A stretch of 64,000 bases of DNA, from assembly GCF_000027125.1 (NCBI RefSeq), contig NC_017626.1. The stretch is one strand, 5' to 3'. The DNA is from Escherichia coli 042. GTDB taxonomy: Bacteria; Pseudomonadota; Gammaproteobacteria; Enterobacterales; Enterobacteriaceae. Position 1 is the first letter of the stretch. Every line of letters starts with the position of its first letter. Under the pieces are notes generated by a model. The model ran no database searches, was not told the DNA's origin, and was given only the letters and a program-made list of their open reading frames with translations. Shown in pieces: positions 54,352-55,347 of this stretch. A program made the translations under genes and the position numbers.

Positions 54352-55347
54352 ATGATACAACCTATTTCCGGCCCTCCTCCTGGGCAACCACCAGGTCAGG
54401 GAGATAACCTGCCGTCTGGCGCGGGCAATCAGCCTTTATCCAGTCAGCAACGTACTTCGCTGGAAAGCTTAATGACGAAAGTGACCTCACTGACGCAACA
54501 ACAAAGAGCAGAACTGTGGGCGGGTATCAGGCACGATATTGGTCTGTCGGGAGATTCACCGCTGCTTTCGCGTCACTTCCCTGCCGCTGAGCACAATCTG
54601 GCGCAACGTCTGCTGGCCGCGCAAAAAAGCCATTCTGCCCGCCAGCTTTTAGCGCAATTAGGGGAGTATCTACGTCTGGGGAATAATCGTCAGGCGGTCA
54701 CGGATTATATCCGTCATAACTTTGGTCAGACGCCGCTGAATCAGCTCTCACCGGAGCAATTAAAAACCATTCTAACCCTGTTGCAGGAAGGGAGGATGGT
54801 TATTCCGCAACCGCAGCAGCGCGAGGCGACCGACCGTCCGTTATTACCGGCGGAGCACAATGCGCTCAAACAGCTGGTGACCAAACTTGCGGCGGCAACG
54901 GGAGAACCCAGCAAGCAGATCTGGCAATCGATGCTGGAACTTTCCGGGGTGAAAGATGGTGAGTTAATTCCAGCGAAACTGTTTAACCATCTGGTGACCT
55001 GGCTACAGGCGCGTCAGACGCTAAGCCAGCAAAATACGCCGACGCTTGAATCACTCCAGATGGCGCTAAAACAACCTTTAGATGCCAGTGAACTGGCGGC
55101 GTTATCGGCATATATCCAGCAAAAATATGGCCTTTCTGCGCAATCATCGCTTTCTTCTGCCCAGGCCGAGGATATTCTTAATCAGCTTTATCAACGGCGG
55201 GTTAAAGGGATTGATCCGCGTGATATGCAACCGCTGCTTAATCCTTTTCCACCGATGATGGACACGTTGCAAAATATGGCAACGCGTCCCGCGCTGTGGA
55301 TACTGTTAGTCGCGATTATCCTGATGCTGGTCTGGCTGGTTCGTTAA
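54352..55347 (+). CDS. flk: Flagellar regulator Flk (C-terminal membrane anchor)
   Basis: 331-aa ORF with Gln/Pro-rich N-terminus and C-terminal TM helix ([17 protein letters not shown]). Confidence 0.88.

Follow-up and report, generated by a model that had tools for sequence, protein, structure and literature searches.

Do two convergent genes whose stop codons share bases, with no room for a terminator between them, influence one another's expression, or is such a junction simply the place at which two unrelated genes meet? The question is raised by flk and yfcJ, which converge within the 64,000-nucleotide stretch of Escherichia coli 042 DNA analysed here (referred to throughout as the window). 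A preliminary description of this DNA reported the overlapping stops and saw in them the potential for transcriptional interference or antisense pairing, with a flagellar regulator on one side and an MFS transporter on the other.

The shared stop codons

The flk coding sequence lies on the plus strand (54352..55347, 331 aa, stop TAA at 55345-55347) and that of yfcJ on the minus strand (55344..56522, 392 aa, stop TAA as the complement of 55344-55346), each extent being given by the open reading frame list, by RefSeq and by a profile match, to NF007987 and NF009048, respectively. The window sequence around the junction reads ...ctggttcgTTAAccccgacg..., and reading it directly places the overlap of the 3' ends of flk (+) and yfcJ (-) at the TTAA of 55344-55347, a tetramer that serves both strands and in which the opposite-strand stops have the central TA in common. 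The first base of the tetramer pairs with the third position of the final YfcJ codon as well, and the fourth completes the flk stop. With a tetramer drawn from TTAA, CTAA, TTAG and CTAG and an overlap of exactly 4 nt, the pair belongs to the N-TA-N type of convergent overlap. In E. coli, 58 convergent overlaps have been counted (Lillo & Krakauer 2007, Biol Direct, PMC2174442), and the length distribution of such overlaps shows a step at 4 nt that has been attributed to these same four tetramers (PMC2174442).

The identical 4-nt overlap is present in the RefSeq annotation of E. coli SK1144, Ecol_316 and K-12 MG1655, where flk occupies 2437950..2438945 and yfcJ 2438942..2440120. The preliminary description had named both genes and placed them correctly, as judged by the open reading frame list, the RefSeq names and the full-length matches to NF007987 and NF009048. 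The overlap that it gave for the two TAA stops is exact, both by sequence and by the open reading frame list, and its remark that no terminator space is left between the genes is borne out: 4 nt are common to the two coding sequences, which leaves no intergenic base.

It might be argued that one of the two proteins really ends elsewhere, for example because of a frameshift or a wrongly called C-terminus, and that the overlap is an unreal product of annotation; overlaps that are long or odd are often mispredictions in prokaryotic annotations, a theme of PMC2478687. Stop codons, contrary to starts, are unambiguous, and both proteins reach the end of curated full-length profiles. Flk scores 506 bits against NF007987 (an equivalog, cut-off 353), with residues 2-330 of 331 lying on profile positions 1-338 of 339, and YfcJ scores 705 bits against NF009048 (MFS transporter, cut-off 364), with residues 1-392 on profile positions 1-392 of 392. 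YfcJ stops at the same residue in Enterobacter and Lelliottia, where a spacer is present between the genes, and the ends of Flk (..WLV[ARSV]) are equivalent across genera. Furthermore, the last ~18 codons of flk encode a hydrophobic membrane anchor, Flk being a tail-anchored regulator of the flagellar secretion switch, and this C-terminal anchor has been reported to be essential to function (PMC8546590). Because both proteins match their profiles end to end, and because the Flk anchor is reported to be essential, we do not take the overlap for an artefact of annotation. That reading, which is effectively refuted by the profile coverage together with the cross-genus alignment of both C-termini, retains almost no probability.

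The junction in related species and in the surrounding region

The comparative set comprised one genome per species and gave 80 loci with a YfcJ orthologue, with both stops located in each. The exact 4-nt overlap was found at 28/80 loci, in all five Escherichia, both Salmonella, almost all Citrobacter, Intestinirhabdus, Pluralibacter and four other lineages. At a further 30/80 loci the genes are parted by a spacer of 4-105 nt (Enterobacter, Lelliottia, Leclercia, Klebsiella, Raoultella, Buttiauxella and Cedecea), and an insert of 1.5-3.4 kb lies between them at 14/80 (Kosakonia, Phytobacter and others). For the remaining 8/80 loci, mostly from Kluyvera, flk was not found within the fetched flank, and three of these loci end early. 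In a neighbour-joining tree of FabB and YfcJ the overlap state corresponds to 27/28 members of the Escherichia-Salmonella-Citrobacter-Intestinirhabdus clade together with three further branches; this tree was midpoint-rooted, and its rooting is too unreliable to tell the ancestral from the derived state.

Among the 28 species with the overlap the tetramer is TTAA in 14, TTAG in 7, CTAA in 5 and CTAG in 2, and the central TA is invariant. TTAA was present in every E. coli and Escherichia genome checked, namely the window, K-12, SK1144, Ecol_316 and the representatives of five Escherichia species. Once formed, an arrangement of this kind locks itself, as a change to either central base destroys both stops together. 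Transitions at the outer bases, on the other hand, are silent in both genes, exchanging TAA and TAG on one strand and leaving a synonymous last sense codon (NNY<->NNY) on the other. The tetramer is expected to drift among TTAA, TTAG, CTAA and CTAG while the geometry stays, and an invariant TA accompanied by all four of the permitted tetramers is the pattern expected from double locking. Since the TA is locked twice over, purifying selection on the two stops keeps the geometry in place, and selection for the overlap itself is unneeded.

The spacers found in other genera are structured. Of those of at least 26 nt, 27/29 contain a strong hairpin or a REP-like pair, with predicted energies of -17 to -58 kcal/mol; examples of the hairpins are GCCACCC-N4-GGGTGGC in the 31-nt spacer of Buttiauxella and GGCCCG-N5-CGGGCC in Klebsiella. 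The spacers of Enterobacter and Leclercia, 40-93 nt in length, hold REP-like palindromes, GCCGGGTGGCGGCTGCGCCTTACCCGGCCTAC and an inverted partner (loci L016, L030, L032, L033, L034 and L037-L040). In these REP-bearing Enterobacter and Leclercia, Flk and YfcJ nevertheless have their last residues where the E. coli proteins do, and in E. cloacae (L040) a CTAA tetramer stands on either side of a single REP-like unit. These sequences hint that the REP-like palindromes may represent an insertion into a flk-yfcJ junction that formerly abutted.

The larger inserts form an accessory cassette, present at 14 loci (L047, L048, L050, L055-L057, L059, L060, L065, L067, L070, L077, L078 and L080) and situated just downstream of the yfcJ stop. 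In the representatives L055 and L067 its open reading frames encode a GntR/UTRA regulator, a PTS EIIC permease and a GH1 glycosidase, a content that suggests a putative role of the yfcJ-flk cassette in the use of beta-glucosides. Citrobacter amalonaticus has both arrangements, one genome carrying the cassette (L055) and another the 4-nt overlap (L054). The cassette occurs in 14 species and the flk-yfcJ junction is therefore also a recurrent site of insertion or deletion.

Within the 64-kb region, flk/yfcJ is the sole overlap among seven convergent gene pairs. The other six pairs are separated by spacers of 32-120 nt, and five of these six form strong hairpins or structures of REP-like type, at -16 to -53 kcal/mol. 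The convergent pair yfcH-rpnB (window ~38480-38530, as read from positions 38482-38530 of locus L083) has a 47-nt spacer that is nearly unstructured (-5.8 kcal/mol), and this pair likewise appears on the published list of excludons, convergent pairs with overlapping transcripts, to which we return below.

The 2.3-kb stretch spanning flk and yfcJ matches 5,424 of 5,426 complete E. coli genomes, with a best identity of 99.2%. For the window as a whole, the best match among the 5,426 complete E. coli RefSeq genomes has 99.0-99.2% identity, and 19 genomes reach at least 99% over its first 25 kb; the window represents a sparsely sampled lineage of E. coli. Flk evolves much faster than YfcJ, the two proteins being 85-88% and 97-98% identical, respectively, in the representatives of four other Escherichia species. 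In the comparison strain Ecol_316, epmC, the gene for elongation factor P hydroxylase, carries a pseudogene annotation because of a frameshift (L084, 11114-11651).

Transcript ends around the junction

The 3' ends of the two mRNAs are complementary because each full-length mRNA must contain its own stop codon. This logic, together with the listing of the pair as an excludon in MG1655, upholds the earlier statement that the 3' regions of the two convergent transcripts must overlap. As a mechanical result, the 3' untranslated end of each mRNA would be antisense to the last codons of the other gene. A Rho-independent terminator of genes that overlap in this manner must sit within the coding sequence of the partner (PMC2174442). 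The window has neither a spacer nor a stem-loop at the boundary, and hence, between the stops, none of the GC-rich stem-loops flanked by A- and U-tracts that make a bidirectional intrinsic terminator, whereas such terminators are found in the spacer-bearing relatives.

On the plus strand, a scan of the 300 nt that follow the flk stop for a hairpin with 4 or more T in the next 9 nt gave no hit. U makes up 8-17% of this stretch, its first ~100 nt are rich in C and poor in G with a C/G ratio of 1.4-1.5, and the next terminator-like site returned for this strand by the consensus scan is at 56591, past the start of yfcJ. The untranslated continuation of the flk transcript, which composition and the hairpin scan place at 55348..55450 (+), runs antisense to the last yfcJ codons and has a C/G ratio of 1.4-1.5 and a U content of 12-13%. 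Having no intrinsic terminator, flk transcripts probably end heterogeneously, through the action of Rho in this C-rich, G-poor stretch antisense to yfcJ.

The consensus scan identified one weak terminator-like hairpin on the minus strand, CAGCGCG-GGA-CGCGTTG with the tail CCATATTTTG, at 55270..55296 (seven pairs, 55296-55280). Its position is within the anchor codons of flk, 48-75 nt past the end of yfcJ. The window, K-12 and the close relative L002 share it in identical form, other Escherichia species have a degraded version, and Salmonella and Citrobacter lack it. This hairpin is at best a candidate for a marginal, lineage-specific signal for the 3' end of yfcJ. Transcripts of yfcJ might stop at this marginal hairpin and U-tract, ~50-75 nt into flk and in E. 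coli only, or might likewise rely on Rho. A conserved terminator embedded within the partner gene was considered and rejected, there being none on the plus strand and only the marginal, non-conserved hairpin on the minus strand.

Published maps of transcript ends bear on the same question. The curated Term-seq 3' ends and Rho regions of Adams et al. (2021, PMC7815308) include none within K-12 2438600-2439199, and neither flk nor yfcJ is mentioned in the SMRT-Cappable-seq supplements. The former study reports a Rho termination region at K-12 2440043 (-), 78 nt into yfcJ (PMC7815308). With bicyclomycin (BCM), an inhibitor of Rho, coverage across the body of yfcJ climbed from 15 to 98 reads, approximately six-fold, with a Rho score of 5.8 (PMC7815308). 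Rho therefore limits the transcription of yfcJ, and it follows that few polymerases cross yfcJ towards the junction in LB.

Codons 18-27 of yfcJ contain a further hairpin, CCGCA-UCGCUUU-UGCGG, which is followed by UUUUUCUCAC (a U5 tract) at window positions 56469-56443 (-). The published maximum of the Rho score (K-12 2440043, corresponding to window position 56445) falls exactly in this U-tract. The hairpin is identical in most Escherichia species and is weakened by synonymous changes in other genera; from its sequence, it may be a site of premature termination internal to the open reading frame, or one that protects a 3' end, and in either case limit yfcJ expression.

Possible regulation across the junction

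Close to the junction, sequence comparison revealed a Pho-box-like direct repeat, TGTCACGATACTGTCGTT, at 55357..55374 (-), in the last codons of yfcJ and 10 nt after the flk stop, where it is formed by the YfcJ codons V-T-I-L-S. A Pho box consists of two TGTCA repeats spaced 11 bp apart. The K-12 allele, TGTCACGATACTGTCATT (NC_000913.3 2438955-2438972), is a perfect direct repeat, TGTCAC-N5-TGTCAT, oriented towards flk, and a PhoB ChIP-seq peak in K-12 is centred at 2438961 with a score of 8, the 7th highest of 65 (PMC10294691, Table 1). In the window a single synonymous TCA->TCG change in the second core leaves 9/10 core bases of the Pho box, other genera have at most 8 core bases, and a perfect box occurs in the K-12 lineage only. 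The junction could, then, be a PhoB-controlled element that acts as a roadblock or gives rise to an antisense RNA into flk, so linking phosphate status to flagellar assembly, a proposal favoured by the strength of the K-12 peak, by the orientation of its perfect repeat and by a second intragenic PhoB site in flhD (PMC10294691). The confinement of the perfect box to one lineage counts against such a role, as does the level of yfcJ RNA, which is unchanged in a phoB deletion (163 vs 187; PMC10294691). By inspection, no acceptable -10 hexamer lies 10-12 nt downstream of the Pho box, the best, GTTAAC, matching at 3/6 positions. As judged by its sequence and by yfcJ RNA, the junction has neither the -10 element nor the PhoB-dependent transcription of a PhoB-activated promoter. 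The same study found low sigma70 occupancy at almost all intragenic PhoB sites and concluded that these sites are inert and unconserved, a judgement on the class in which the junction site is not named individually. Control by PhoB is very improbable in our estimation, and we have rejected a functional role for the site at the junction; being lineage-specific, made by the V-T-I-L-S codons and of a kind reported to be inert, it is probably incidental.

A more general proposal is that flk and yfcJ form a functional convergent excludon, in which the missing spacer has been selected because the transcripts run on into the opposite gene, and the resulting reciprocal repression, through collision of polymerases and/or cleavage of the RNA duplex by RNase III, leads to mutually exclusive expression. 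A catalogue of 165 convergent excludons in MG1655, each seen in at least 50% of 58 RNA-seq samples, does include the pair (Sanmartin et al. 2025, PMC12288877). The criterion applied by ExcludonFinder, a coverage at the transcript boundary of at least 50% of the gene mean, is almost automatically satisfied if the coding sequences already overlap, and as proof of transcript overlap the listing of flk-yfcJ is weak evidence. Capture of double-stranded RNA by p19 was uninformative for convergent pairs as a class, and synteny is higher among excludon pairs, again taken as a class, than among non-excludon pairs (PMC12288877). The retention of the overlap across Escherichia, Salmonella and Citrobacter, that higher synteny and the want of a convincing terminator near the junction on either strand would all suit an excludon, but the double lock on the TA fully explains the conservation. 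The overlapped codons of yfcJ, moreover, show no extra synonymous constraint, the synonymous codon entropy of the last 30 being 1.27 bits compared with 0.92-1.24 elsewhere, at the 84th percentile of sliding 30-codon blocks. A conserved RNA or DNA element embedded in these 30 codons appears, from the alignment, to be absent. The 3' end of flk is itself highly variable between genera at the DNA level, and many Enterobacteriaceae part flk and yfcJ by hairpins, REP-like elements or a sugar-utilisation cassette; the relatives separate the genes, and adjacency without a terminator is therefore not required. No functional link between Flk and YfcJ is known, and the transcription of yfcJ is both low and Rho-limited. 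Taking these points together, we consider a functional excludon unlikely.

Less likely again is the specific form of this idea in which the spacer-less junction is a working excludon, such that inducing either gene would measurably repress its partner, and is perhaps modulated by PhoB, 10 nt from the flk stop, in K-12-like strains. Were a working excludon nevertheless true, it would couple a checkpoint of flagellar secretion specificity to an MFS transporter implicated in the biogenesis of bo3 oxidase. As a separate observation, yhhS is presumably a paralogue of yfcJ. The pair dcrB-yhhS is also on the published list of convergent excludons (PMC12288877).

How strongly the two genes are transcribed bears directly on any cross-talk. 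[quoted passage not shown] Both genes appear to be weakly transcribed, so that collisions of polymerases and RNA duplexes should be rare and cross-talk probably negligible in the LB and low-phosphate media from which the expression evidence comes, strong induction being possible elsewhere. Promoter-knockout, induction or single-cell data on flk-yfcJ were not found in the literature consulted. The interference or antisense control between flagellar regulator and MFS transporter that the preliminary description had envisaged is unsupported by this analysis and by that literature, and a strong effect is unlikely, being argued against by indirect signs, since yfcJ RNA is low, yfcJ is Rho-limited and extra synonymous constraint is absent. 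As a counter-point, the presence of strong hairpins or REP-like pairs in nearly all of the spacers of relatives suggests that termination at this junction may matter, and that its loss might have consequences.

We conclude that the flk-yfcJ overlap is real, old, ordinary and already annotated and catalogued. Our preferred reading, in which we have considerable though not complete confidence, is of an ordinary 4-nt N-TA-N tail-to-tail overlap of two unrelated genes, with regulatory cross-talk that is probably negligible. What is new here is the cross-genus record, in which all four tetramers are found at one junction and the spacer-bearing relatives carry hairpins or REP-like elements. The junction provides a natural comparison of four states, namely the 4-nt overlap, the hairpin terminator, the REP-like palindromes and the sugar-utilisation cassette, and this series can be used to ask whether a missing terminator between convergent genes has a cost in expression.

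Set beside known systems, flk-yfcJ resembles the 4-nt convergent overlaps of PMC2174442 both in the sharing of TA by stops within CTAA, TTAA, CTAG or TTAG and in that a terminator is only possible inside the coding sequence of the partner; there is no material difference between them, and flk-yfcJ is one instance of that class. With the convergent excludons (PMC12288877) it has in common the overlapping 3' transcription of opposite-strand neighbours and an intergenic distance that is shorter than average; reciprocal or mutually exclusive expression and processing by RNase III are, however, features of the excludon class, of which flk-yfcJ is a listed candidate only. Bidirectional terminators and REP elements (Wang et al. 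2022, 10.1101/2022.10.23.513370) occupy the same setting, between two converging transcription units. The window is without this element, which is said to position collisions between gene boundaries, whereas in Buttiauxella, Klebsiella, Leclercia and Enterobacter the interval from yfcJ to flk is occupied by hairpins of just this kind or by paired REP-like palindromes.
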